From the IMG/VR virus record IMGVR_UViG_3300027823_000001, positions 1 through 64,000 of that record: a DNA stretch of 64,000 nucleotides. The stretch is one strand, 5' to 3'. The position numbers and the translations under genes were made by a program. The DNA is from a virus. The notes beneath the pieces were generated by a model. It searched no databases, was not told the origin of the DNA, and worked only from the letters and a program-made list of their open reading frames with translations. This document shows, in pieces, positions 8,220-44,705 of this stretch; within the stretch, counting starts at the first letter, position 1; every line of letters begins with the position of its first letter.

Positions 8220-9578
8220 ATGTCTTCGGCGTTCCCCTTCGATGTGCAGTTTCAGAGATCGATTGCACGGCTCGCCATGCAAGACGAAGGCTTTGCATCG
8301 CGCGCGTTCAAGCACGTAGATGCGTCGTTCTTCACGACGCGTCCGCTCGGGTGGATCTGGACCACGATGCACGCGTACTGGCAGAAGTACATGGTGCGCA
8401 TGACCGAGGTGCCGTTGCGCGACTCGCTTCGCTACGTCGAGCCCGAGAACGTCACTGGTTACTCGAACGAGATCGACGCGACGTGCTCCATCCTCTCGGT
8501 GACCGAGCACGCCTACGTGCGAGAAGCGCTGACCGACTTCTGCAAGCGCAGCATCTTCGCGCAGACGCACAAGAAGGCGCAGGAGCTTTACAACGCAGGC
8601 CAACCCGTCGAGGCCTACGACGAGACGCAGCGCTCGCTTGATCGCATTCGAGAGATCACGTTCGAGGATGAGAACCGATCGTTCTTCTTCGAGGAGATCG
8701 AAGACCGACACCGCGCGCGCATCATCAAGAACGCGACAGGCTTTCAGCGCGTCTTCAGCACAGGTCTCGAACCCATCGACACCGCCACGGATGGGGGCGC
8801 GGTCGAAGGTGAGGTGTGGCTGGTGCAGGGCGTGGCCAAAGCAGGCAAGAGCACCTGGCTCACGCACAACGGCTTCCGTTGCTGCCGCGTGCATCGCGAG
8901 CCTGTTCTGCACATCCAGCTAGAAGGCAAGCGCGAGCAGGTTGAGGCCCGCTACGACGCGCGCTTCTCGGGAGAGTTCTACTCAGAGGTGCGCAAGGGCT
9001 CCATCACTCCGGCCCTCTACCGGGACATGCTTGATGAGTACCGGAGGCTGCGAGGTCTGTTGGTGATCCGCGCCATGACTGACTGGGACGTGACCGCGCT
9101 CGACATCGAGAGCGAGATCAAGACGCTCAAGGCGCGCGGCTTCGTGCCGAAGATGCTGATCTGTGACTACGTGGATCTGCTGCGCTCGCGCAACAAGCGC
9201 GTGGACAGCGAGATGCAACATCAACTCGACGCGACGCGAGATCTGAAGCGGCTGACGATGAACTGGGGTCTCGTCACGCACACGGTCTCGCAAACGCAGA
9301 GGCCCAAGGATGGTGACGACGAACATGAACACGTCATCCGCGCTTCACAGATCGCAGACGCTTACGCGAAGATCCGAGTGGTGGATTTTGTCGGCTCGCT
9401 GAACACAACGAGGCAAGAACGCGAGCAAGGGATCTCTCGCTTCTACGCCGAGATGCATCGCGACAACGCGATGGGGATCTACCTGCGCTTGCAGAACGAC
9501 ATCGCGCGGATGCAGATCGGCGTGAGCGCCGAAGTGATCGAGTTCAAGGAACGGCAAGCGGAGGGGCGGAGGCGATGA
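8220..9578 (+). CDS. dnaB: Replicative DnaB-like (SF4) helicase
   Basis: STGL-x-x-ID, GVAKAGKS Walker A, QLE, ICDYVDLL, VSQ, IADAYAK motifs. Confidence 0.9.
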   Translation: MSSAFPFDVQFQRSIARLAMQDEGFASRAFKHVDASFFTTRPLGWIWTTMHAYWQKYMVRMTEVPLRDSLRYVEPENVTGYSNEIDATCSILSVTEHAYVREALTDFCKRSIFAQTHKKAQELYNAGQPVEAYDETQRSLDRIREITFEDENRSFFFEEIEDRHRARIIKNATGFQRVFSTGLEPIDTATDGGAVEGEVWLVQGVAKAGKSTWLTHNGFRCCRVHREPVLHIQLEGKREQVEARYDARFSGEFYSEVRKGSITPALYRDMLDEYRRLRGLLVIRAMTDWDVTALDIESEIKTLKARGFVPKMLICDYVDLLRSRNKRVDSEMQHQLDATRDLKRLTMNWGLVTHTVSQTQRPKDGDDEHEHVIRASQIADAYAKIRVVDFVGSLNTTRQEREQGISRFYAEMHRDNAMGIYLRLQNDIARMQIGVSAEVIEFKERQAEGRRR

Positions 9579-10600
9579 CTGACACTCTCGCACGCGCCAT
9601 CACCGCGTTCCAGATGGGCCCGTTCGCGCGAGCGGTCGGAGCGCGCAAAGAGTCGCCGAGCGCCTACTCCCACGAGTGGCTCTTCACCTGCCCGCGCTGC
9701 TCTTCGTCGCGTCTGCGCTTCAACGCCGCGAAGCGCGCGGGCGTCTGCTGGGGCTGCCGCCGGGGCTATGACACTTTCGCGCTCGTGCGTGACGTGCTCA
9801 AGATGGATGAACTCGCTGCGGTGCTGTGGTTCACGAGTCGCTACGTGGGCGGCGACTCATCGGCGGAGGCACTCACCTCGGCGCTCGTAGTCATGGCAGC
9901 GCCCAAGCCTGCCGTGCGCCGCCTACCGCAGGTGCAGTGGCCCGAGGGCGCCGAGATCCTCACCTCGCCATGCCTGCCCCACGAACGGGCGTGGGCGTAC
10001 CTCAGCGGGCGCGGAATCGATCTGCACATGGTGCGAGAGTTCGGGCTCGCCTACGGGCGCAGCGGGCGCGTGCGCGAGCGCATCGTGTTCCCGTGCCGAA
10101 TGGACGGCACGCTCGTCTACTGGCAGGCGCGCGCCATCTACGATCCGCCGCCGCTCCTCCAGGGCCACGACCTGCGCGGATGGAAAGAGAGGAACGCCTA
10201 CATCAAGTCGATCAACCCATCGCTGAGCAGCGCGGACGCTCCGCAAGCGCACGAGGTGATCTACAACTACGAGCGGGCAAGAGACGAGCCTCACGTCGTG
10301 ATTTGCGAGGGGCCCATCGACACGATCAAGATCGGCCTGCACGCAGTCGGCTTGCTGGGCAAGGCTGCCGGACCTGTGAAGCTTGAGCGCCTGAAGCGCA
10401 TGCGCGCGAGCCGCTTCACGATCTACCTGGACCACGGGCCTGAGGAGCTAGAGAGCGCGCGTCGCATCGCGAGCGAGCTATCAGCCATGGCGGAGGTGAG
10501 GATCTGCACGAGCCCTCCTGGCTACGACGCGGGCGCCCTGGACCGCGCGACGAACGCAGCCATCGTCGCAGCGGCGATTCCCTGGGTTCCGTGCCTCTGA
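9575..10600 (+). CDS. DNA primase (zinc-binding domain + TOPRIM)
   Basis: CPRC...CWGC, YLSGRGI, RIVFP, ICEGPID, YLD. Confidence 0.88.
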   Translation: MTDTLARAITAFQMGPFARAVGARKESPSAYSHEWLFTCPRCSSSRLRFNAAKRAGVCWGCRRGYDTFALVRDVLKMDELAAVLWFTSRYVGGDSSAEALTSALVVMAAPKPAVRRLPQVQWPEGAEILTSPCLPHERAWAYLSGRGIDLHMVREFGLAYGRSGRVRERIVFPCRMDGTLVYWQARAIYDPPPLLQGHDLRGWKERNAYIKSINPSLSSADAPQAHEVIYNYERARDEPHVVICEGPIDTIKIGLHAVGLLGKAAGPVKLERLKRMRASRFTIYLDHGPEELESARRIASELSAMAEVRICTSPPGYDAGALDRATNAAIVAAAIPWVPCL

Positions 10601-10630
10601 ACGAAAAAACGCATCCGAAACTGTAAGCAA

Positions 10631-10643
10631 AATCAGCTACTTG
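10631..10643 (+). promoter_or_regulatory. IHF-like binding site in AT-rich intergenic region
   Basis: AATCAGCTACTTG fits the WATCARNNNNTTR consensus, with A/T tracts nearby; upstream of the small-gene array. Confidence 0.35.
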
Positions 10644-10763
10644 TCACTTTTTTCCGCGAACTCTGCATGACGAGCTTCGCTTGCACCTACTAGATGCACA
10701 TGGGCGGCAAGAACGCCGCCTACCACTACCTAGCCGGGCAACCCCGGACGATGGAGAGACCCC

Positions 10764-11075
10764 ATGTACAAAGCGCGCACCAACACCACGACCTCGACGA
10801 CCCTGATCACCGGCAACACCTTCCCGGCCAAGGACGCGCTTCGCGCCCTTGGCGGCAGGTGGGACGCCCAGGCGAAGGGCTGGCGCGTGCCTACCGCGGC
10901 TGCGCCCCGCGCCTGGGCGCTAGTCAAGGCTGCGCCCGCCAAGGCTGCGCCCGGCACTGCTCGGGCCTACCGGAGCCGCGGCGTGTGGACTGGCTGCCCC
11001 TGCGGCGCGAGGGAGCTGCCCGGCGGAGGGCTCTCCAGCAACGCGTGCGCGGACTGCCGATACGACGACGAGTGA
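10764..11075 (+). CDS. Small phage protein with C-terminal Cys motif
   Basis: GGAG RBS; GNTFPAKDALRALGGRWD...W motif; CPC...CADC. Confidence 0.7.
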   Translation: MYKARTNTTTSTTLITGNTFPAKDALRALGGRWDAQAKGWRVPTAAAPRAWALVKAAPAKAAPGTARAYRSRGVWTGCPCGARELPGGGLSSNACADCRYDDE

Positions 11076-11086
11076 TCCTCGGCACC
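11069..11086 (+). repeat. 18-bp boundary repeat, copy 1
   Basis: CGAGTGATCCTCGGCACC, identical at 44209-44226; both copies contain a gene's stop codon. Confidence 0.85.
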
Positions 11087-11161
11087 CTCCGGCGCCCGAC
11101 ACGATCGGGCGCCGCGGGGTGACGATGACCGCCACCGCTACCTACCACCCCAAGGATCACT

Positions 11162-11422
11162 ATGACCACCATGCACGACAAAAACACCACCCAGCCCTTC
11201 GTCGCGTGCCTTGTTTCGCGCGATGGGCCACACGTGCGCGTCCTCTACCGCGGCACCCTCGATCTGGACGCTGCGCTGGCGCTCGTAGGACGACCCGCGC
11301 AGCTGCTGTGCGACGCGCAACACAAGAGCAGTACGCTGCGCGTCGCACGGTTCTTCTCGGTGTCGCCGCCCGATCTGCCCGCCGACGCCATCCGCTCCGC
11401 GCTCGGGCTGGTGGTGTCATGA
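11162..11422 (+). CDS. Hypothetical array gene
   Basis: AAGGA RBS; ends ALGLVVS-stop overlapping the next ATG. Confidence 0.7.
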   Translation: MTTMHDKNTTQPFVACLVSRDGPHVRVLYRGTLDLDAALALVGRPAQLLCDAQHKSSTLRVARFFSVSPPDLPADAIRSALGLVVS

Positions 11423-11610
11423 GCAGCACCCTCAAGGACGACTTCGAGTCCTGCACTAGCGCACTGACCATCCGACACGGCTGGGGTCTCGACGGGCCCG
11501 GCCCAGCTCGCTTCGGCTGGTGGGCTGTGCACCCGTGCCGCGTGCGGTGGCTGGGTCGCACCCGTGCCGATGTCGTCGCTCGGATGATGGACGGGACGGT
11601 GGCGTCATGA
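11419..11610 (+). CDS. Array gene carrying module A (RHGWG...RFGW...LGRTRADV)
   Basis: 63 aa, ATGA-coupled, ends VAS-stop. Confidence 0.65.
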   Translation: MSSTLKDDFESCTSALTIRHGWGLDGPGPARFGWWAVHPCRVRWLGRTRADVVARMMDGTVAS

Positions 11611-11945
11611 GCACCATCGAAGGCCTGCTTGTCCGCCTCCGGGACGAGGACGACCTCGACGGCTGCGCCGAGGCCATCGACTGGCTAGCGGCACGCGAAG
11701 GCACGCTAGAGCAAGTGTGGGATGACTGCCCACGCGGCAACTGGCTGATGCGGCTGGCCGAGAGACTGCGGCGGCCACGCGGGGCCGCAGCGCACGTGCT
11801 GAGTGTCGCCTGGGACGTGGTCGCGCGCGACCAGCCGGGCTGGATGCAAGACTACACCAGGGCCGACGTGGTGCGTCAGCACATCACGGCTGCGATGATC
11901 GTCGCTGTGCTGGACGCTCACGCGGCCGCGGCGGTGAAGCCATGA
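11607..11945 (+). CDS. Array gene, paralog family C copy 1
   Basis: MSTIEGLLVRLRD..DLDGCAEAIDWL...W..CPRGNW. Confidence 0.75.
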   Translation: MSTIEGLLVRLRDEDDLDGCAEAIDWLAAREGTLEQVWDDCPRGNWLMRLAERLRRPRGAAAHVLSVAWDVVARDQPGWMQDYTRADVVRQHITAAMIVAVLDAHAAAAVKP

Positions 11946-12265
11946 GCACCATCGAAGGCCTGCTTGTCCGCCTCCGGGACCCGTACGACCTCGACGGATG
12001 CGCCGAGGCCATCGACTGGCTAGCGGCACGCGAAGGCACGCTTGAACAGGCGTGGGCGGAGTGCGAGCGCGGAGACTGGATGGTATGGCTGGCAGAGGCG
12101 GCCGGTGTCTCCAACGCGATCTACATAGCCGCGGCCGATGCGCTGCCCGAATCCGAGACGCTGCGCGCGCAGCCCGCGGCCGCCATCGCGGTGCGCCAGC
12201 ACATCACAGGCGCGATGATCGTCGCTTTGCTGGACGATCACGCGGCCGAGAGGATCTCGCCTTGA
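11942..12265 (+). CDS. Array gene, paralog family C copy 2
   Basis: First 39 nt identical to the 11607 gene. Confidence 0.75.
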   Translation: MSTIEGLLVRLRDPYDLDGCAEAIDWLAAREGTLEQAWAECERGDWMVWLAEAAGVSNAIYIAAADALPESETLRAQPAAAIAVRQHITGAMIVALLDDHAAERISP

Positions 12266-12399
12266 CGGCGACCGGGCCATCCGGGTCGCCATCACCGCTG
12301 GGCTCACCTCTGACCGGGCTGCGCAGATCTCCGCACGTGCGGCGCTCGATCTGGCGATCAAGAGCGCACATGCCTACCTCATGGCGCTGACGATCGAGC

Positions 12400-12493
12400 G
12401 CGATGCGGTTCTTGCGGCGCGCGCCGACGCGGAGGAGCACGGACAGGGAAGTCGCGAGGCGACCCGCCCTGGGTTCGAGTCCCAGGCATCTCA
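12400..12493 (+). pseudogene. Degenerate tRNA-like element
   Basis: Perfect T-arm CTGGG-TTCGAGT-CCCAG (12469-12485); 6/7-bp acceptor-like pairing GCGATGC/GCATCTC; GTCGC/GCGAC variable-arm-like stem; no recognisable anticodon arm. Confidence 0.3.
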
Positions 12494-12544
12494 GGCATCT
12501 CACATGCGTTCCACTACTACCCCTACCACCCCAAGAGGATCACC

Positions 12545-13057
12545 ATGACCACCCCGAAGACCCACTACGCACCTACGTTCTCTGGCCTCGCCTCGTGCGG
12601 CCCCGTAACGCCCTCTACCACCCCACGACGCGATGCCGTAACCTGTGAGCGTTGCCGCCGCACGGCGGCCTACCAGGCGGCCCCCGCATCGCCCCCGGGG
12701 CCGCTCGCCTTCGTCGTTCAGTCAATCTACGATGGTCGTTGGGCCAACGAGCCGGATGGCGCGTGTTCCTCGATGGAGGAGGCTAAGGACGTGATTGACT
12801 CCCTGGTTGAGACGTACGGCTACGAGCGCAACTCGATGCGCGTCACCATCGTTCGGCTCCCGACTGACTCCGTAGGGCATCTATCGATCACGCGCAAGCT
12901 CCGCGTCTCGGTGGTTGGCGCGCTCTCTCACGAGGCCCACGAGGTTGGCGACCACGCGATGGTCGCGATCTGCTCGCGCGCCCTCGATGGCGAGGCGCGC
13001 GCGGTCGAGGAAGTCGCGCGCGTCCTTGCGGCGGCGGCCAACGAGGTGGCGTCATGA
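12545..13057 (+). CDS. Array gene carrying module B plus N-terminal Cys/His motif
   Basis: GAGGA RBS; VTCERC; FVVQ..DGRWANEPDG.C....EA...IDSLV...GY; ends VAS-stop. Confidence 0.75.
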   Translation: MTTPKTHYAPTFSGLASCGPVTPSTTPRRDAVTCERCRRTAAYQAAPASPPGPLAFVVQSIYDGRWANEPDGACSSMEEAKDVIDSLVETYGYERNSMRVTIVRLPTDSVGHLSITRKLRVSVVGALSHEAHEVGDHAMVAICSRALDGEARAVEEVARVLAAAANEVAS

Positions 13058-13446
13058 GCTGTATGATCACCGAGTGGACCTCCGCGCCCTCGCCCGAAGT
13101 GCTCGAACGCATTGCGGACTACATCGCGATCGAGGCTCTGTCTGAGGGGCTTTCGATCGAAGGGCTCTCCGGCTATGACATCACGCCGGCGGACATCGAT
13201 TACATCACCACGGAGTACAGTGCGCGGGACGAGTTGGAACTGGCCTGGGTCAACCTCGTTGTTGAAGGGCTCGTACGTACGACGTTCGCGAGGCTGACGG
13301 AGGGGCTCGATCTACGCTACGGCTGGGCGTACGATGGGGGCTGTACGCGGTTCGGCTGGCATTCGCGCACGGCCGGCGGCGAGCGGTTCGTGGGTGCGAC
13401 GCGCGTCGATGTGCTGGTGCGTCTCGTCAAGTCGGTGGCGTCATGA
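13054..13446 (+). CDS. Array gene with C-terminal module A
   Basis: DLRYGW...RFGW...VGATRVDV; ends VAS-stop. Confidence 0.75.
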   Translation: MSCMITEWTSAPSPEVLERIADYIAIEALSEGLSIEGLSGYDITPADIDYITTEYSARDELELAWVNLVVEGLVRTTFARLTEGLDLRYGWAYDGGCTRFGWHSRTAGGERFVGATRVDVLVRLVKSVAS

Positions 13447-13880
13447 ACATCCAACTCGCCCGCGCCGCGGAGGCGTTCTCGCAGCTTGAGACGGCCGAAG
13501 AATGGTACGCCGCGCTCGGATGGTGTACCGGGTGGTACGAGGCCGACGGGTCGGAGTCGGAGTGCGAGATCACGCACCCCGTCTGCGCCCCCGGGGACCT
13601 CGGGCTGTCCGACGGTGAGATCGCCCAGAACGTCGCGGGTGACGCCTCGGAGGAGGAGCGCGAGGCGATCGGTGAGGCCGTGACCTACGCGCGCCGAGCC
13701 TGGGCCGCGGCGCAGATCATCCGCGCGACCCTGGTAGAGGCGATAGAGCACTACGGTGCGGGGGACATCGCGGGCGCGCGGGCGTCTATCCTCCGCGCCT
13801 CGGCGCAGGAGTTGGAGTGGGGCGACGACCCTAGCACTGCTGCGGTGCGCACCGCGCTCGGGCTGTCGGTGGCGTCATGA
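13443..13880 (+). CDS. Hypothetical acidic array gene
   Basis: 145 aa; ends ALGLSVAS-stop. Confidence 0.75.
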   Translation: MNIQLARAAEAFSQLETAEEWYAALGWCTGWYEADGSESECEITHPVCAPGDLGLSDGEIAQNVAGDASEEEREAIGEAVTYARRAWAAAQIIRATLVEAIEHYGAGDIAGARASILRASAQELEWGDDPSTAAVRTALGLSVAS

Positions 13881-14221
13881 GCGACATCATCTACGTGATC
13901 CAGTACAGCAGCGACGGCTGCTGGGCGGACGAGCCCGAGGGGCGGTGCGCGACGCACGCCGAGGCGCGGTCCGGCATCGACTCGCTCGTGAGCGTGTGCG
14001 GCTACCGGCGCGACACGCTGCGGATCGTCGAGCGCGCTATCCGCCTGGCGGACGCCTTCAGGGCCTGCACCTCCGGCATGGACCTGCGCCACGGATGGGG
14101 CCTGACCGGCGCCGGTGAGGCTCGCCACGGCTGGTACGCTCTCAGCCCCTGCCGCGAGCGCTACCTCGGTAGGACTCGTGCCGATGTCGTCGCGCGATCG
14201 CCCGTGGTGAAAGAGACCTAG
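13877..14221 (+). CDS. Array gene: module B + module A fusion
   Basis: YVIQ..DGCWADEPEG.C...IDSLV...GY followed by DLRHGWG...RHGW...LGRTRADVVAR. Confidence 0.75.
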   Translation: MSDIIYVIQYSSDGCWADEPEGRCATHAEARSGIDSLVSVCGYRRDTLRIVERAIRLADAFRACTSGMDLRHGWGLTGAGEARHGWYALSPCRERYLGRTRADVVARSPVVKET

Positions 14222-14308
14222 CCCGAAACGCGCGCAAGCGCGTCGCTGCGTATGGCGCAGCCTGACGATGGGCGTCGGTATCACCCCTCACTATCGAATG
14301 GAGACTCA

Positions 14309-14557
14309 ATGAAGACCAAGGATCTGATCGCAGAGCTGCTCAAGCAGAACCAGGACGCGGAGGTGCACTTCGCGTACGACTACGGCGACTATACGCGCAC
14401 TGAAGTTGCGTCGGCCGTGACCAACGTAGTGAACGGCTACGTGGCGCACTCTGCCTACCACGACATGCCAAAGGTTGTTGACGCGACCGAAGGCTCGCAG
14501 TGCGTCGTGGTGCTGCGAGCGACCGAAGGCTCGCAGCGCGTCATGGTGCTGCGATGA
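14309..14557 (+). CDS. Hypothetical phage protein
   Basis: GGAG RBS; MKTKDLIAEL...YDYGDY; 36-bp tandem duplication at 14483-14554. Confidence 0.7.
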   Translation: MKTKDLIAELLKQNQDAEVHFAYDYGDYTRTEVASAVTNVVNGYVAHSAYHDMPKVVDATEGSQCVVVLRATEGSQRVMVLR

Positions 14558-15024
14558 CGCGCTTCAAGATGTACACAGGACCAAACGTGCGGGCAGTTGC
14601 AGATGCGATCGCGCGTATCCCTGCCACGACCAACCTGCTCGCCGGCACTGACCATGTCTACTACGACTCGCCGCACTCGCTGCGCGAACAAGAGCGCTTG
14701 GCGCACCATGACGGTGCGTCGCGTAGTTGCTGGAACTACATCGAGGGCGCACGCGTGATCGAGAGTCGAGTCCGCCGCGTGGCAGATGCGCTCTACAGTG
14801 CTTGGCTGCCTCTCATGAGAAGAGAGGTCGAAGGCTTCAACGCCCCTGCGTCGATCAGCGAGTGCGCCAACAACAGCGTCATCGACAATGACGACTCGGT
14901 GGAGCTGCTTGCCAGCTTCGCCATCACCGCACGCGCACAGGATGGGCGCTGGCCTGCACTGACCGAACAACAGATCGAGCGCTTCGTGGCCGCGGCTGTC
15001 GAAGCAGAAAGAGAGACGCGATGA
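14554..15024 (+). CDS. Hypothetical protein
   Basis: ATGA-coupled at both ends. Confidence 0.65.
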   Translation: MTRFKMYTGPNVRAVADAIARIPATTNLLAGTDHVYYDSPHSLREQERLAHHDGASRSCWNYIEGARVIESRVRRVADALYSAWLPLMRREVEGFNAPASISECANNSVIDNDDSVELLASFAITARAQDGRWPALTEQQIERFVAAAVEAERETR

Positions 15025-15191
15025 AGAGGTCGTACACACCACTCTTTCCGGTGACGAAAGAGATTCCTGACTACGTACCTCCCGACAGGGAGTGCGCGTA
15101 CATCTGCGGCACGGGTGACCGCTGGCGCTTCATGCTGCTCTGGCAGCATGAGCCTCGTACTCAGTACACAGGCATCGAGGTGGTGCCGTGA
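15021..15191 (+). CDS. Small hypothetical protein (56 aa, below track cut-off)
   Basis: Open frame MKRSYTPLFP...GIEVVP fills the gap exactly, with ATGA/GTGA overlaps. Confidence 0.5.
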   Translation: MKRSYTPLFPVTKEIPDYVPPDRECAYICGTGDRWRFMLLWQHEPRTQYTGIEVVP

Positions 15192-27639: not shown

Positions 27640-27765
27640 TCGATCGCCGCGTTTGCATCCCATGCACAGGACTAGTGCACGGCTTGAACTACATCTGCGA
27701 ATGGTGTGGCGAGCCGTGCACGAGCGCGCCTGCTGAACCTTGTTACCCTTGATCGAAAGAGAACG

Positions 27766-28986
27766 ATGCAACGCAAGCCCCGCAGCATGAAGGAAGCGCT
27801 GGCTCCTTCTCCGAAAGAAGAAGAGCCGACGAAACGCAAGAAGAAAGCCGCTGCACCAGTGAACGATGCAGAACGCTTTTTGGAGCTGCTGAAGGGCCTG
27901 AATCCGAAGGACGAGAACGCGTTCGGGTTCTTCGGGCGTGATGGGCTCGACACTCCGATCAACGAGTTCATCTCAACAGGCTCTCTCGCGATCGACAAGC
28001 TGATCGGCGGACCCACCGGAGGATGGCCCATTGGGCGCTTGTCGGAGTGCGCGTCGTGGGAGGGCGTGGGCAAGAGCACCTTGCTCGACCAGTCGATCGC
28101 GCAGGTGCAACGCATGGGAGGCATCGCGGCAGTGATCGACTCGGAACACTCACGCGATGCGAGCTACACGCGCAGGCTCGGCGTGGACACTGACACTCTG
28201 ATCGCGAAGCCCGTCGAGACAGTAGAGGATGTTTTCTCTGCCACAGACACTGTGCTCTCCGTGCAAGAGAGGCTCACCGCGGAGTACGCGAAGCGCAAAC
28301 AGAAGCCACCGCCGCTCTTGCTCGTGTGGGATTCGCTTGGAGCGACACCGACGAAGCGCGAGCTGTTGGGTGAGCCTGATGACAAGCACGTCGCGGAAGC
28401 TGCCAAGGTGATCAAGATGAACTTCCGCCGCATCTGCGCGCGGATTGCTGATCTGCGCATCGCGTTCGTGTTCGTGAATCACTTTTACACAGACATCGGG
28501 CCGTTCGCGACAATGAAGACGAGCGGCGGTAGCGGTGTTCGGTATTTCACATCGCTTCGGCTGTGGCTGACGAACAAGGGCCAGATCAAGATCGGCAACA
28601 CGGTGTTCGGACATGAGGTCGAAGCCAAGACCAAGAAGACACGCGTACGCTCGCCACGACCTCCGGCACAAGCAGGGCTCATCTACGGCGCCGGCTTTGA
28701 CAACGCCTACACGCTCTACAGCTGGGGCAAGACCGCAGGCCTGTCGAGCGATCACAAGTGGATCGTCGAGACACCGCAGTGGCAGTATCTCATGCTGCCG
28801 GATGGCACGCACATCGCCTTTCAGCAGAGGTTCATCGGGCTCGGTAAAGCGTTCGCGGAGCGTCCCGATGCATACGCCATGATGGCTGATCACTTCATGC
28901 GCGATGGTGAAGACATCCTCGGCGAGCCCGAGGAAGACGATGAAGAAGAAGAGAACGAAGACGACGCAGAGGAGAAGACCACATGA
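27766..28986 (+). CDS. recA: RecA/UvsX recombinase
   Basis: ISTGSLAID..IGG, GWPIGR, EGVGKST, IDSEH, VWDS, SGG.G.RY. Confidence 0.92.
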   Translation: MQRKPRSMKEALAPSPKEEEPTKRKKKAAAPVNDAERFLELLKGLNPKDENAFGFFGRDGLDTPINEFISTGSLAIDKLIGGPTGGWPIGRLSECASWEGVGKSTLLDQSIAQVQRMGGIAAVIDSEHSRDASYTRRLGVDTDTLIAKPVETVEDVFSATDTVLSVQERLTAEYAKRKQKPPPLLLVWDSLGATPTKRELLGEPDDKHVAEAAKVIKMNFRRICARIADLRIAFVFVNHFYTDIGPFATMKTSGGSGVRYFTSLRLWLTNKGQIKIGNTVFGHEVEAKTKKTRVRSPRPPAQAGLIYGAGFDNAYTLYSWGKTAGLSSDHKWIVETPQWQYLMLPDGTHIAFQQRFIGLGKAFAERPDAYAMMADHFMRDGEDILGEPEEDDEEEENEDDAEEKTT

Positions 28987-31900
28987 GCAAGCCGAAGAAG
29001 AGCACGAAGAAGACCGCAGCAGTCACCACGACGACTGTGCGCAAGCCGCGAGGTCTCACGACAGCACCTGTGACGCCGACGTTGAAGTTGCCCGAGTTGA
29101 AGCCTGCGGAGTGGCGTTACATCCTGTTCAGCGATCTCCACGTCTGCGGCAAGACGATCGATCGAGCGCTCGTCTTGCTCGACCGCGTGCGCGAGACGGC
29201 GCTGCACTACCAGTGCTCTGTGATCTGCCTCGGAGACTTCTGGGACCAGCGCGCAGCACTCGCAGTGCGCCACCTGGATCTGATCCAGCGCGAGTTCGAG
29301 AAGTGGGGGCAGCAGGGCGTGGAGCTGATCATCGTGCCCGGTAACCATGACCAAGTCTCGCTCGATGGTAGCGTGAACGCCGTTCGGATCTTCGACGGGT
29401 TCGAGCACATCACGGTTGCGACCGAACCGTACGCAGACCCGATCAACAAGCTCGCGTTCATCCCTTGGCGTGAAGAAGCGAACAAGCAGGCTGCGGCGTT
29501 CGAGATGCTGCCGGGTGAAGGCTGGACGGTCTTCGCACACGCGGAGATCGAGGGCGCCATCGCCAACTCCGGCAAGGCTGCGACGGGGCGCGTGAAGACC
29601 GCACTGATCGAGGCTCACGCTCGCGCTTGCTACGTGGGCCACTACCACAAGAGGCAGCAGCTCGGCGACCGCACTTGGTACATCGGCAGTCCGTTCGAAA
29701 TGAACTTCGGTGAGCGCGATGAGCCTCACGGCATCGCGATCGTGGACAGCGAGAACCCCGAGCCCTGCTTTCTCGATCTGGACGATATGCCGAAGCACCA
29801 TCGCTTCGTGTGGCCTGACGATGGTGCGAAGCTGAACACCGCGCGTCCGCAGGACATCGTGGAGCTGTACTTCAAGCCGGATGACCTTGGTGGACCAGGG
29901 CTGAAGCAAGCACTCGGTAGCTTGCTCGCTCGCGACGTGCGCCCACTGCCGCTCGCGCAGTCCGCAGATCAGGAGACGGTGCCTCAGTTTGCGCTCACCA
30001 TCACCGAAGGCTGCAAGCTGTTCGTGGCTGAGTACGCGAGAGCAGAAGCGGCGCTCGGCTCGCCCGTACCTGAAGACAGGATCGAGCGCTTGACGTCGTT
30101 GGGGCGCAAGTACCTGATGCAGGTGCCTGACGCGCGCGTGATCGCACCGATCTCTCCGACGGTGCGCATCCTGAACGTGCGCGCGCAGAACTTCTGCGCC
30201 GTCAGAGGCGCGCACTCATTCAATCTGCGCGAGCTGGGCCCTGCGCTCATCCGCGGACCCATGGGTATCGGCAAGACTTCGATCTGCGACGCGATTACAT
30301 GGGCTCTCTTCGATGAGACCACGCCTCGCAAGCCCGGCGCGCGTACGGGTTCCCTTCGTGCTGACGACGTGATTCATGATGAAGCGGAAGAGACGATGGT
30401 GCGTGTGGAGGTCACCTTTGATCCTCCGGAAGCTGTCGTCGAGAACGTCATCACCATCGAACGCACGAAGCGCCGCGGACAGGGCACCAAGCTCAAGCTG
30501 TATGGCATCGATGCCATACACGACCTGAACGGGATCGCAGACACGCAGGACGCGGTGCATCGGATCATCGGACTCGATCTCGATCTGTGGCGCGCTACCG
30601 TCTACCTCGGTCAGGGTGCTGTTGCGAACTTCGTCACGGACGCCGACAAGAAGCGCAAGGAGCTGCTCTCTCAGGCCTTCGGGCTTGGCGCGTGCGAGCC
30701 CGCGCAGAAGCTCGTGCGAGAGGAGATGAAGAAGCGAGATGCTTCGCTGTCGCTCTTTGCTATGCGTGAGAACGAAGCGCGCACAGGCCTGGAAGCGCTC
30801 ACGCACGCGGACTTCGCAACGCAAGCGGGACAGTGGGATGCAGCGAAGGAAGCATCGCTGGCGGCGCTCGTGAATGAAGGGAAGGATCTGCAAGCGCGCA
30901 TCGAGCAGATCACTCCGCACCTCGCGGTCGAGCAGACCTGGACCGAGCACCGCACTGCGTTCGACGCGCACATCAGCGACCTCACCAAGAGCCTCTCAGC
31001 TGGAGGCAACGAGGTAGCGACGCGCAAGCTGGCCGGCGAACTAGGCGCGTGTGAGGCAGAGCTGGGCTTGGAGCAGCGCACGCTCGCGAAGCTGCAAGCC
31101 GAGTATCAGGCGATGATGGCCGCGCGTGATCAAGGGACAGCGCTGCCGTGCGGCGCGTGCGGTCAGCTCATGCCTGCGGCGAACATGGATGCGCACCTGG
31201 AAGAGTGCGAAGAAAAGCTCGCGACGAAGCAGCGCGAGATCGAGTCGTTGAACATGCGCGCGCTGAACCTACGCGGTCAGCTCGACGCATTCAAGATGGG
31301 TCCTGCGGTCGACAAGACCGGGCTGCTCGCGCAGCTGGAAGATGCCCGCGCGCAACACACCAAGTGCATTGAAGCGCTCGGCGCGATCGCGCAGATGAAG
31401 GCCGCGAAGCAAGACGCAGCGCAGCGCCTGATGCTCGCGCGCACGCAGTGGACTGCGAAGAACGTGGAGCTGAACCCGTTCACGCAGAAGGCGTCTGAAG
31501 TCGCGGCGTCGAGGCAGAGCTACCAGGGCGCGCTCAACGACGCACTGGGCGGCGCAGCAGAGGCACAGCGCGCGCTCGCGGACCTGCGCGTGTGGGAAGA
31601 CGGCTTCGGCCAGAAGGGCGTGCCTGTGCTCGTTCTACGCACCGCGCTCTACGAGCTGGAGCTGCACGCCAACGCCGCGCTTGGCACCATGCTCTCCGGT
31701 CGCCTCTACACGAGGCTCGCGATGGACGGTGATGACTTGGTGATCAAGTACTACGAGTACAAGGCGGAGAAGAGCACGCACATCGAGCGCACGTTCTACC
31801 AGCTCTCGGGCGGGCAACGGCGCTGCATCGAGCTGGCGTTCTCACCCTTCGCACTGTCTGAGATGATCTTCACGCGATGCGGTGTGCGAGTGAAGCTCTT

Positions 31901-32090
31901 GGTGGTCGACGAACTCACCACGCATCTCGATCCCGAGACCAAGCCTCTGCTCTGCAATCTGCTGCGTGGTCTCGATCGAGAGACCGTGCTCGTGATCGAT
32001 CACGACTCGGGTGTGCAAGGAGAGTTCGACTGCGTGCTTGATGCAGGCACGGGCGCCGATGGAAACTTCCAACTGACGAGGGCATTGTGA
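28983..32090 (+). CDS. Fused SbcD (Mre11) nuclease - SbcC (Rad50) ATPase
   Basis: SDLH, LGD, GNHD, GHYH phosphoesterase motifs; then GPMGIGKTS, Q-loop GQG, coiled coil with CGACG hook, LSGGQ, VVDE, IDH, all in one 1035-aa ORF. Confidence 0.92.
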   Translation: MSKPKKSTKKTAAVTTTTVRKPRGLTTAPVTPTLKLPELKPAEWRYILFSDLHVCGKTIDRALVLLDRVRETALHYQCSVICLGDFWDQRAALAVRHLDLIQREFEKWGQQGVELIIVPGNHDQVSLDGSVNAVRIFDGFEHITVATEPYADPINKLAFIPWREEANKQAAAFEMLPGEGWTVFAHAEIEGAIANSGKAATGRVKTALIEAHARACYVGHYHKRQQLGDRTWYIGSPFEMNFGERDEPHGIAIVDSENPEPCFLDLDDMPKHHRFVWPDDGAKLNTARPQDIVELYFKPDDLGGPGLKQALGSLLARDVRPLPLAQSADQETVPQFALTITEGCKLFVAEYARAEAALGSPVPEDRIERLTSLGRKYLMQVPDARVIAPISPTVRILNVRAQNFCAVRGAHSFNLRELGPALIRGPMGIGKTSICDAITWALFDETTPRKPGARTGSLRADDVIHDEAEETMVRVEVTFDPPEAVVENVITIERTKRRGQGTKLKLYGIDAIHDLNGIADTQDAVHRIIGLDLDLWRATVYLGQGAVANFVTDADKKRKELLSQAFGLGACEPAQKLVREEMKKRDASLSLFAMRENEARTGLEALTHADFATQAGQWDAAKEASLAALVNEGKDLQARIEQITPHLAVEQTWTEHRTAFDAHISDLTKSLSAGGNEVATRKLAGELGACEAELGLEQRTLAKLQAEYQAMMAARDQGTALPCGACGQLMPAANMDAHLEECEEKLATKQREIESLNMRALNLRGQLDAFKMGPAVDKTGLLAQLEDARAQHTKCIEALGAIAQMKAAKQDAAQRLMLARTQWTAKNVELNPFTQKASEVAASRQSYQGALNDALGGAAEAQRALADLRVWEDGFGQKGVPVLVLRTALYELELHANAALGTMLSGRLYTRLAMDGDDLVIKYYEYKAEKSTHIERTFYQLSGGQRRCIELAFSPFALSEMIFTRCGVRVKLLVVDELTTHLDPETKPLLCNLLRGLDRETVLVIDHDSGVQGEFDCVLDAGTGADGNFQLTRAL

Positions 32091-32575
32091 GCAAGCACGC
32101 GCGCAAACACAGTAGCCGGCGTGATGATGGCTGGTATGAGGTGATGGATACAGCCGTCGATGCAAAGCTCATCCCTCGCAGTGTGAAAGAGACCGACGGC
32201 CATCGTTGCTTCGTGCGCGGACCTGTCGGTCAGATCGAGATCATAGAGGTGCCTGAGAGCATGCCCGAAGTCGCGAGACAGGCCCTTGGCCAGCGCCTTT
32301 CGTCGATGGGCGCGACGGTGCTGCTCGTCAACGAGCACATCAAGTTCTATCGGCTGCGGCGCGCGAGCGCGGAAGAGAAGAGGTCACTTGATGCCTTCGA
32401 GAAGCAAGATGGTGAGGCGCCCGCGAGCCCTTCCCCCGGCGACGAGGCTGCCGACGGTGCTGTCTCTGGATCTGTCACTCACGGCGACGGGCGTGGGGGT
32501 GATCAACCCGATGGGGGAGCTGGTGCACTGGGAGACGATCAAGAGCGTGCGCAAGGCGGCATCAAGGATCGCTGA
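32087..32575 (+). CDS. Hypothetical protein
   Basis: GTGA coupling; 3' end overlaps the ruvC gene. Confidence 0.55.
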   Translation: MSKHARKHSSRRDDGWYEVMDTAVDAKLIPRSVKETDGHRCFVRGPVGQIEIIEVPESMPEVARQALGQRLSSMGATVLLVNEHIKFYRLRRASAEEKRSLDAFEKQDGEAPASPSPGDEAADGAVSGSVTHGDGRGGDQPDGGAGALGDDQERAQGGIKDR

Positions 32576-33011
32576 GGTCCGCGATCGCGTCGTTGCCATC
32601 GCACGCGAGTACAAGCCTGATGAGATCGGCTGTGAGTATTTCGGTGTGGCAGCGGGCAACAAGCAACGCGCGAGCGCGATCGAGATAGTCTGGCTGCACG
32701 GCAACGTGCACGTAGCGCTTGTCGAGGCAGGCTTCGTCGCGCCGATCTTCATCGCGCCTGCGACGCTGAAGAAGTGGTACACGGGTCGCGGGAACAAGGT
32801 TGAGAAGGCAGAGGTGATCGCGGCTCTTCACGCGCGCTATGGCATCAGCGTGCCTGAGCACAACGCCGCAGACGCGGCGGCCGTCGGCTTCATGCTGCAT
32901 GAGCGCGCGCGGTACTACGCAGGCTTGGTCGCGCTGCGCAAGACTGACTCATCCGACTTCAGCGACTACGAGATCGAGAAGATGGAGAGCTGGCAGCGCG
33001 CGTTCACATGA
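32409..33011 (+). CDS. ruvC: RuvC-like Holliday junction resolvase
   Basis: SLDLSLTATG, CE, PATLKKWYTGRG...K, HNAADA. Confidence 0.85.
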   Translation: MVRRPRALPPATRLPTVLSLDLSLTATGVGVINPMGELVHWETIKSVRKAASRIAEVRDRVVAIAREYKPDEIGCEYFGVAAGNKQRASAIEIVWLHGNVHVALVEAGFVAPIFIAPATLKKWYTGRGNKVEKAEVIAALHARYGISVPEHNAADAAAVGFMLHERARYYAGLVALRKTDSSDFSDYEIEKMESWQRAFT

Positions 33012-43696: not shown

Positions 43697-44215
43697 ATGG
43701 ACGACGACAGCAAGCCCGCGACCGAAGGCGCCAGCCCCGCGCACGGACCCGTACCGAACACGGTCTGCCACACCTGCGAGTTCTACGCAGGCGCGATGGA
43801 CGCGCTGGCCTACGACCCGCGCACGCAGTTCCGCAACGGCACCTGTCTCTGCATCGACGCGGAGGTCCTGGGCCCGCACTACGGCTTCTCGATCTGCGCG
43901 GACAAGCACGTCCACCTGAAGCTCGGGATGGAGGTAGAGATCGGCACCGTCTCTGCCATCACCGTCGCGGCGTACGCACTCGCGCTCTCCTACGACCGCG
44001 AAGGATGGGTCGCAGGCTTCGTGCCTGGCACCGAGCAAGCCAAGAGCGCGCTGCGCGATTGCATCGCTGTGCTCCGCACACGCACGCCCAACACCGACTT
44101 TGCAGACTGGCTGGCGAAGCACTCGGCTCGCGACCTCTCGCGATGGATCAAAGAGATCTGCAAGGCCGTCGCACGCGTCGAGGATGGTAAGTTCGAGCTG
44201 TCCACCATCGAGTGA
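43697..44215 (+). CDS. Hypothetical protein
   Basis: 172 aa, CHTC..C motif; stop lies within the 18-bp boundary repeat. Confidence 0.65.
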   Translation: MDDDSKPATEGASPAHGPVPNTVCHTCEFYAGAMDALAYDPRTQFRNGTCLCIDAEVLGPHYGFSICADKHVHLKLGMEVEIGTVSAITVAAYALALSYDREGWVAGFVPGTEQAKSALRDCIAVLRTRTPNTDFADWLAKHSARDLSRWIKEICKAVARVEDGKFELSTIE

Positions 44216-44264
44216 TCCTCGGCACCACCGCGACTCCAGACCATAGAGGATCACCATGACCACC
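44209..44264 (+). repeat. Boundary repeats shared with the 11-12.5 kb array
   Basis: 44209-44226 = 11069-11086; AGAGGATCACCATGACCACC at 44245-44264 = 12534-12553. Confidence 0.85.
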
Positions 44265-44705
44265 ACCATCACCGATCTGCTAGTCCGACTCCGGGACGAG
44301 GACGACCTCGACGGGTGTAGTGACGCCATCGACTATCTGGTCGCGTACGACGGCACGCTCGGGCAGGCGTGGGAGGACTGCCCCCGCGGCGACTGGCTGC
44401 TCTGGCTCGCACTCCGGGTCGGTGTCCCCGACGCGGCCTACACAGCAGCGTCCGAGGTCTTCGCGCGCGTGGCCTACGCGGCCACCTACGAGGCCGAGGC
44501 CGAGGTCGAGGCTGAGGAGGAGATACTGGGCGCGACCGAATCCGAGACGCTGCGCGCGTTTCTGCGTGCGAGCGCCATCGCAGTGCGCCGGCACATCACA
44601 GCCGAGATGGTCGTCGATGCGCTGGACGCTCACGCCGACACTGTGGCGGCCTTCGATGCCGTGGTGGGGTCGGTCGTCGCAGGGTGCAAGCGGTCTACTA
44701 CCTGA
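44256..44705 (+). CDS. Paralog family C copy 3 (displaced)
   Basis: LLVRLRDEDDLDGC..AID.L....GTL.QAW..CPRGDW...ESETLRA...AIAVRRHIT. Confidence 0.8.
   Translation: MTTTITDLLVRLRDEDDLDGCSDAIDYLVAYDGTLGQAWEDCPRGDWLLWLALRVGVPDAAYTAASEVFARVAYAATYEAEAEVEAEEEILGATESETLRAFLRASAIAVRRHITAEMVVDALDAHADTVAAFDAVVGSVVAGCKRSTT

Follow-up and report, generated by a model that had tools for sequence, protein, structure and literature searches.

The virus record IMGVR_UViG_3300027823_000001 of IMG/VR contains an array of small genes in which one 13-base sequence, GGTGGCGTCATGA, recurs at places where one gene ends and the next begins. This sequence, referred to below as the joint, is the subject of the present analysis. 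The window analyzed here is the first 64 kb (positions 1 to 64,000) of the record, which is 100,095 bp long, carries direct terminal repeats and has a GC content of ~ 63%. A primase gene (9575-10600, PHROG 47) precedes the array region. The array genes form two coupled runs, A-B-C-D (11162-12265) and F-G-H-I (12545-14221), with a stretch termed E between them (Table 1). DNA searches with the record and with the array, in near as well as in distant mode, returned no match among isolated phages, and since no isolated phage has a primase more than 27% identical, we take the virus to have no cultured relative.

Exact copies of the joint start at 11598, 13045, 13434 and 13868, all of them on the + strand and at gene junctions, and together they span 11598-13880. 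They are the only four copies in the whole genome, and 100 dinucleotide-preserving shuffles yielded no match to the 13-mer. The recurrence of this sequence is far beyond chance. Each copy contains the TGA of the upstream frame as well as the ATG of the downstream frame. The junction between A and B carries a copy with one mismatch, GGTGGTGTCATGA, and that between C and D a variant of Z type, GGTGAAGCCATGA. A longer common stretch, GCGCTCGGGCTG, precedes the joints at 11410 and 13868. The initial annotation of the window had listed these six copies, the stop and start codons that they include and the additional common sequence, all of which proved real, and the genome-wide count that it had proposed for the 13-mer returned only the four copies in the array.

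Listing every ATGA in the genome that joins two long open frames illustrates how closely the joint is confined to the array, as none of those outside the array is like the motif. Under a strict junction filter (both frames of at least 50 codons, with a GC content at third codon positions, GC3, of > 0.7), junctions were compared with GGTGGCGTC. Five of the six array junctions lie within one mismatch of this sequence, whereas none of the 18 junctions elsewhere in the genome lies within three, in agreement with the earlier remark that other ATGA overlaps do without the motif.

An alignment of 22 junctions from six loci displays high information content only between -9 and +5, with background levels beyond, and gives the consensus GGTG[GA][CA]G[TC]CATGA[GCA]C. 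A ribosome-binding core, GGTG or GGAG, occupies positions -9 to -6 in 21 of the 22 junctions and lies inside the upstream gene. The joint adopts two main forms, namely GGTGGCGTCATGA, which provides the upstream protein with a Val-Ala-Ser tail, and GGTGACGCCATGA, which provides a Val-Thr-Pro tail and is mostly found after Z genes. Spacer variants among the relatives described below are GCGT, ACGC, AAGC, GCCC and GCAT. Several copies have 18-21 bases in common, and after A, H and W the common sequence extends to ~ 33 bases, corresponding to a ...IR.ALGL tail. The motif is flanked by varied pairs of families, including W/X, X/Z, Y/Z, Z/N, H/I, H/M9, F/G and G/H. RNA folding around the joints is no better than that of shuffled sequences (z-scores of -0.1 to +1.3), and neither a sigma-70-like promoter on the + strand nor an intrinsic terminator was found within the coupled runs.

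The genes of the array had initially been described as largely unrelated, a statement that has to be corrected. An X domain, with the signature RHGWGL..FGW..GRTRADVVAR, is common to B and to the C-termini of G and I (BLASTP E values of 1e-10 to 1e-25). Similarly, a Y module is shared by the central part of F and the N-terminus of I (BLASTP E 7e-13), and C and D are paralogues with 57% identity (BLASTP). Gene A may, at a stretch, represent a diverged Y module. Simple descent accounts for part of the recurrence of the joint, which is present at the homologous ends of X domains and in the tandem Z duplicates. Alignment of I with A-B and with the W-X pairs of the relatives places the boundary between its Y and X parts on the joint, with ATC replacing the ATG of the X gene. 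Because this boundary coincides with the joint, the same modules occur as a coupled gene pair and also fused into a single protein. The modules of the array have evidently been duplicated, split, fused and reordered.

Table 1. Positions of the array genes, joints, leaders and neighboring features. Positions refer to the window unless another contig is named.
Feature	Position	Strand	Remarks
Small gene just 5' of array	10764-11075	+	weak DUF5710-like N-terminus
Leader-2 connector before A	11066-11161	+	GTGATCC/GGATCAC pairing encloses strong hairpin
Gene A	11162-11422	+	86 residues, tail ...ALGLVVS
Joint A/B	11410-11422	+	GGTGGTGTCATGA, one mismatch
Gene B	11419-11610	+	63 residues, X domain alone
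Joint B/C	11598-11610	+	exact 13-mer
Gene C	11607-11945	+	Z family
Joint C/D	11933-11945	+	Z-type variant GGTGAAGCCATGA
Gene D	11942-12265	+	Z family, tandem paralogue of C
Stretch E, gene model unsettled	12266-12544	+	frame open; no ATG/GTG/TTG before 12381
Gene F	12545-13057	+	170 residues, Y module mid-protein, C-terminus weakly X-like
Joint F/G	13045-13057	+	exact 13-mer
Gene G	13054-13446	+	130 residues, C-terminal X domain
Joint G/H	13434-13446	+	exact 13-mer
Gene H	13443-13880	+	145 residues, tail ...ALGLSVAS
Joint H/I	13868-13880	+	exact 13-mer
Gene I	13877-14221	+	114 residues, Y-X fusion
Composite intergenic element closing array	14221-14309	+	GCCCGAAACG, hairpin, then CCTGACGATGGGCGTC
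Third Z paralogue outside array	44256-44705	+	headed by leader-2, not by the 13-mer
Leader-2 copies	11066-11176, ~12515-12547, 44206-44258; L008 12637-12700; L009 1225-1310		
~140-base leader copies	L008 9110-9253, 11184-11336, 12245-12387; L009 96-266, 901-1069; L010 603-802		

Shared modules and the ends of homology

Relatives of the viral backbone are two IMG/VR contigs, L005 and L006, whose primase is 72% identical and which are collinear with the record on both sides of the locus. In both of them, positions 10597-15188 of the window are replaced by an unrelated 2.3-kb insert, and scanning the two contigs for copies of the joint yielded none. Relatives of the modules were reached through the Z family, namely the complete 46.5-kb phage G001 (L007/L008) and the short metagenome contigs L009-L014. 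According to a tblastx comparison, the modules of the array are all that the window genome and G001 have in common. At the nucleotide level the shared modules are 78-89% identical (H 88.7%, Z 88.9%, X 78.6% and the gene at 10764 81.8%). The third Z gene of the window is 89% identical to G001 Z2, a Z gene next to terminase genes.

In G001 the modules are located just upstream of the terminase genes, in another order and together with additional families: W-X-(double joint)-Y-Z-N-M5 ... H-M9 ... (10764 homologue)-X'-Z. The homologue of the 10764 gene (L008 12380-12646) again lies just 5' of an X-Z pair. The short contigs display the further arrangements W-X-Z-N, Z-Z-Z, and a C-like Z upstream of three different Z genes. 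The variation among relatives that had been anticipated for the array is thus real, with the backbone relatives carrying another insert and G001 and the contigs reordering the modules. All three exact 13-mers of G001 are situated within its array. Two of them form a double joint, 34 bases apart (L008 9698-9744), where the X gene of G001 passes the first copy in another frame and stops at the second. This arrangement looks like the scar of a lost gene.

Several of the positions at which homology ends coincide with the joint. Homology of H between the window and G001 ends two bases past the ATGA in both (13882 in the window, L008 11796), and different genes follow. The X homology ends at the ATGA (11610 in the window, L008 9710), and in many pairs the Z homology begins one base before the motif, regardless of the upstream neighbor. 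Gene A looks as if it had been inserted between leader-2, a connector considered further below, and an X gene, its right edge being formed by the joint.

Other breaks lie off the joint. Contigs L011 and L012 are 97% identical up to 160 bases into a Z gene, P0005 (L009) consists of the first 13 residues of an X gene fused to Z, and L011 has X joined to the final 36-39 bases of a Y gene. The homology of H starts 14-47 bases into the gene, and the tail shared by A and W starts 36-42 bases upstream of the start codon. For exchange between Z genes, stretches of 40-170 near-identical bases of gene sequence are available. The expectation that breakpoints would fall at the junction was therefore borne out by several homology breaks and contradicted by those inside genes. 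Recombination clearly occurs in the region and uses more than one type of homology, namely conserved gene ends, leaders and longer tails. The joint is probably among the homologies used.

Outside these phages, an exact scan of IMG/VR with the 15-mer GGTGGCGTCATGAGC returned at least 120 contigs, which are unrelated and GC-rich. Half of the matches listed pass the strict gene-junction test, compared with 6% for any ATGA in the same loci. Among the matches listed, the 15-mer occurs singly in unrelated phages and no new arrays were found, and one contig marginally resembles an array protein (F, tblastn E 3.5e-4). With at least 120 contigs and half of the listed matches at strict junctions, the sequence is a common way to write a ribosome-binding site and a gene overlap in GC-rich phages. 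Rarity of the 13-mer at ordinary coupled genes, on which the initial proposal depends, applies to the rest of this genome, but not to these contigs, where the sequence serves as an ordinary junction. In unrelated GC-rich viral loci, 13 of 380 junctions (3.4%) are within one mismatch of the motif. Given this background of ~ 3%, near-uniform use in the array needs shared history or special selection.

Junctions of the (G)GAGGTGGCGTCATGA type occur two to three times, ~ 200-500 bases apart, in the unrelated GC-rich contigs L036 (2342/2539) and L131 (3860/4060/4542). Reuse of the joint in runs of small genes may be more widespread.

Explanations for the uniform joint

On balance we favor, as rather probable, the explanation that the joint is a translation seam which travels with a mobile pool of small modules, and not a dedicated recombination site. 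The 13-mer combines the ribosome-binding core GGTG, a fixed 5-base spacer and the ATGA overlap, with the upstream gene ending in GTG GCG TCA TGA (Val-Ala-Ser-stop) where the downstream gene starts. As a seam it would join the small genes into the translationally coupled runs A-D and F-I, each with a hairpin leader at its head. The module pool (X, Y, Z, H and others) would have moved, together with the seam, between phages of unrelated backbone. The uniformity of the seam could then be explained by its inheritance with the modules and its retention by selection for coupled translation. Descent and copying would act through the X-domain ends, the Z duplicates and the shared ALGL tail, and selection would preserve the ribosome-binding core, its spacing and the stop and start codons. 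Being the only sequence common to unlike neighbors, the seam probably also provides a short homology patch for RecA-type recombination of the phage, in which case it would be one of several crossover places. The phage encodes RecA (27706-28986), an SbcC/Rad50-like ATPase (28983-32090) and RuvC (32286-33011), all on the + strand, and also a family A polymerase. The present analysis shows the anatomy of the joint, its confinement to the array, the homologies among modules, their presence in unrelated phages and the places at which homology breaks.

Several points weigh against the seam explanation. We infer the coupling of translation, as well as any role in recombination, from sequence alone. 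The joint at the end of H, which forms the sole orthologous pair that can be checked, lacks the GGTG core in G001 (L008 11782) and differs from that of the window at three of 13 positions, compared with ~ 11% change in the gene itself, indicating that purifying selection on the exact seam sequence is not strong. Few events were sampled, as the array is carried by only one other complete phage and a few short contigs. Finally, where a break is known from short metagenome contigs alone, it could stem from chimeric assembly at repeated Z segments.

The initial annotation had instead proposed a plug-in connector, meaning that selection acts on the 13-mer mainly for its use as a recombination site, where crossovers add, remove or reorder cassettes, in the manner of an integron without an integrase. 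We consider this unlikely, although part of the evidence agrees with it. Non-homologous neighbors share the joint in two unrelated phages, several homology breaks fall exactly on it, gene A appears to have been inserted between leader and X gene with its right edge there, and the double joint of G001, with its 34-base spacing, resembles a deletion scar. Joints longer than the core also exist (18-21 bases, or ~ 33 including the ALGL tail). The phage carries RecA, SbcC-like and RuvC genes and no integrase, as neither the tyrosine recombinase PF00589 nor the serine recombinase PF00239 had a match in the whole 100-kb genome.

However, many rearrangement endpoints lie off the joint, including those of L011/L012, P0005, the X-Y fusion of L011, the A/W tail and the start of H, and exchange between Z genes can use their 40-170 bases of near-identical sequence. 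Neither a structure nor a flanking signal singles out the joint as a site, and 13 bases are a very short substrate for RecA-type exchange. The plug-in connector therefore fits as a description of the outcome, but a dedicated recombination function is not supported. We are equally doubtful of a broader proposal, in which the seam, with its core of 13-15 bases and some copies of 18-33, would be a real recombination linker that lets RecA-equipped phages of unrelated backbone swap coupled modules from a common pool, and would also decide between separate coupled proteins and fused ones.

A less probable explanation, to which we give little credence, is that the joint is a regulatory start-associated sequence (SAS), comparable to that of Cluster K mycobacteriophages, at which a phage or host factor (protein or RNA) would control the translation of the gene set together. 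Such a site would account for a discrete asymmetric motif of 13-15 bases that keeps one orientation at the starts of varied non-structural families. It would also account for conservation that exceeds the needs of a ribosome-binding core, since the spacer, the base before the ATG and position +5 are included, and that is limited to one gene set. Yet no candidate factor was identified, spacer positions vary among the relatives, and one orthologous joint, at L008 11782, has lost the GGTG core. In addition, the same 15-mer serves as a junction in many unrelated phages that do not carry these genes. Convergence or chance, with GGTGGCGTCATGA as merely the favored spelling of a ribosome-binding site and ATGA overlap in GC-rich DNA and no shared history, would suit the at least 120 unrelated contigs, the excess of strict junctions among the listed matches (half versus 6%) and the lack of any listed contig clearly related to the array proteins (the single tblastn match being marginal), but convergence alone is strongly disfavored and very improbable, as the ~ 3% background contrasts with five of six junctions in the array and 0 of 18 elsewhere in the genome, and the joint travels with homologous modules between phages.

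Comparison with known connectors

The joint is a variant of known linker and start-associated motifs. Its anatomy is that of ordinary ATGA coupling, with a four-base overlap and a ribosome-binding site embedded in the 3' end of the upstream gene. The ordinary overlaps of this genome each differ, whereas the array reuses one sequence. In the modular theory of lambdoid phage mosaics, short conserved boundary or linker sequences are proposed as crossover points. These linkers are intergenic and are not known as a stop/start overlap that is repeated within one array.

The array shares with integrons its small, promoterless genes on the same strand, which vary between relatives. Unlike an integron, it has no integrase and no attC-like folded sites, and its units are joined by translation signals.

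The SAS of Cluster K mycobacteriophages has the consensus GGGATAGGAGCCC and is positioned 3-7 bases upstream of the start codon (PMC3203893). Like the joint, it is an asymmetric 13-base sequence in a single orientation with a ribosome-binding core inside, it is found at the starts of non-structural genes of different families, and it is rare outside its phage group (PMC3203893). Both may overlap the upstream stop, and for both the function is thought to be translational and is unproven. The two differ in sequence (GGGATAGGAGCCC versus GGTGGCGTCATGA) and in that the joint itself includes the start and the stop. Furthermore, copies of the joint, unlike those of the SAS, form contiguous coupled runs and are common to an unrelated phage together with the genes.

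The PeSL elements of T4-type phages are ~ 100 bases long, each combining a promoter with a terminator hairpin, and experiments have demonstrated excised circles (PMC2839356, PMC4122927). Their copies recombine without an integrase, by means of the general recombination machinery of the phage, which leads to deletion, insertion and gene swap (PMC2839356, PMC4122927). Joint and PeSL are alike as repeated regulatory connectors that flank genes of no known function in hyperplastic regions. In contrast to PeSL, the joint has 13-15 bases with neither promoter nor hairpin, and would couple translation, not transcription. As the defining features that were tested are lacking, the joint does not belong to the SAS, PeSL or integron systems. 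By analogy, the seam may work most like the SAS motifs combined with ordinary ATGA coupling, and the array may behave like the PeSL-flanked hyperplastic regions of T4-type phages.

It is an old question why the boundaries of phage mosaics fall at gene edges, with conserved linkers on the one hand and random joining followed by selection on the other. The array offers a compact natural test of this question, as one short seam is reused between unlike genes in two phages with nothing else in common, and the phage studied here carries RecA, SbcC-like and RuvC genes of its own. The modules of the array occur as separate coupled genes as well as in fused form, and the seam marks the boundary between the domains. 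Should only the ordinary reading hold, the joint would still clearly exemplify a start-associated motif in phages other than the mycobacteriophages.

Leaders and further features of the locus

A second connector, leader-2, heads A, F and the third Z gene in related copies. The stop codon of the upstream gene forms part of GTGATCC(TC), a sequence that pairs with the (GA)GGATCAC located at the ribosome-binding site of the next gene, and ATGACCACC follows. The GGATCACC of leader-2 also resembles the usual 3' end of 16S rRNA. The copy at 11066-11176 has a fold z-score of -5.7, and leader-2 may represent coupling by hairpin melting.

The frame of stretch E is coding-like, follows directly after the CCT-TGA-C of gene D and ends in the second leader-2 copy. 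E could be a decayed gene, or could involve a frameshift or an unusual start. As an explanation of the missing start, a +1 frameshift at CCT-TGA-C (12260-12266) was considered and is unproven.

The composite element at 14221-14309 has a hairpin, the stem of which varies in sequence from phage to phage, followed by the palindrome CTGACG-N5-CGTCAG, and is similar to a PeSL. The same element separates each cassette gene in L005 (11493-11571, 11872-11950 and 12494-12512), and both the window copy and these repeats are nearer to the PeSL type than the joint is. The module-sharing phages harbor a third kind of connector, a repeated leader of ~ 140 bases with 79-92% identity between copies, which extends into three different downstream genes and covers their first codons (MTNEN / MTNT).

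Searches of Pfam and PHROGs returned no family for any array protein, and a word-index protein search with I returned only I itself. An AlphaFold model of the Z alignment reached a predicted local distance difference test (pLDDT) score of 54, too poor for a fold search. Weak leads from Atlas, such as Imm5_like for Z (31% of one cluster, score 0.87), were not used. A profile of the X domain found no further arrays in viral contigs and no match in prokaryote genomes. Distant relatives of X are present in many small proteins from other sources, where the domain bears no family name, and the X proteins P0011 and P0012 likewise end in VAS or VVS. The X domain (GW.LDGPGPARFGW...GRTLAEV) is also repeated inside large proteins, for example P0014 (3454 residues) and the Lys-rich P0015 (437 residues). 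At 14483-14554, in a small gene 3' of the array, two tandem 36-base copies with 94% identity encode a repeated VVLRATEGSQ peptide.

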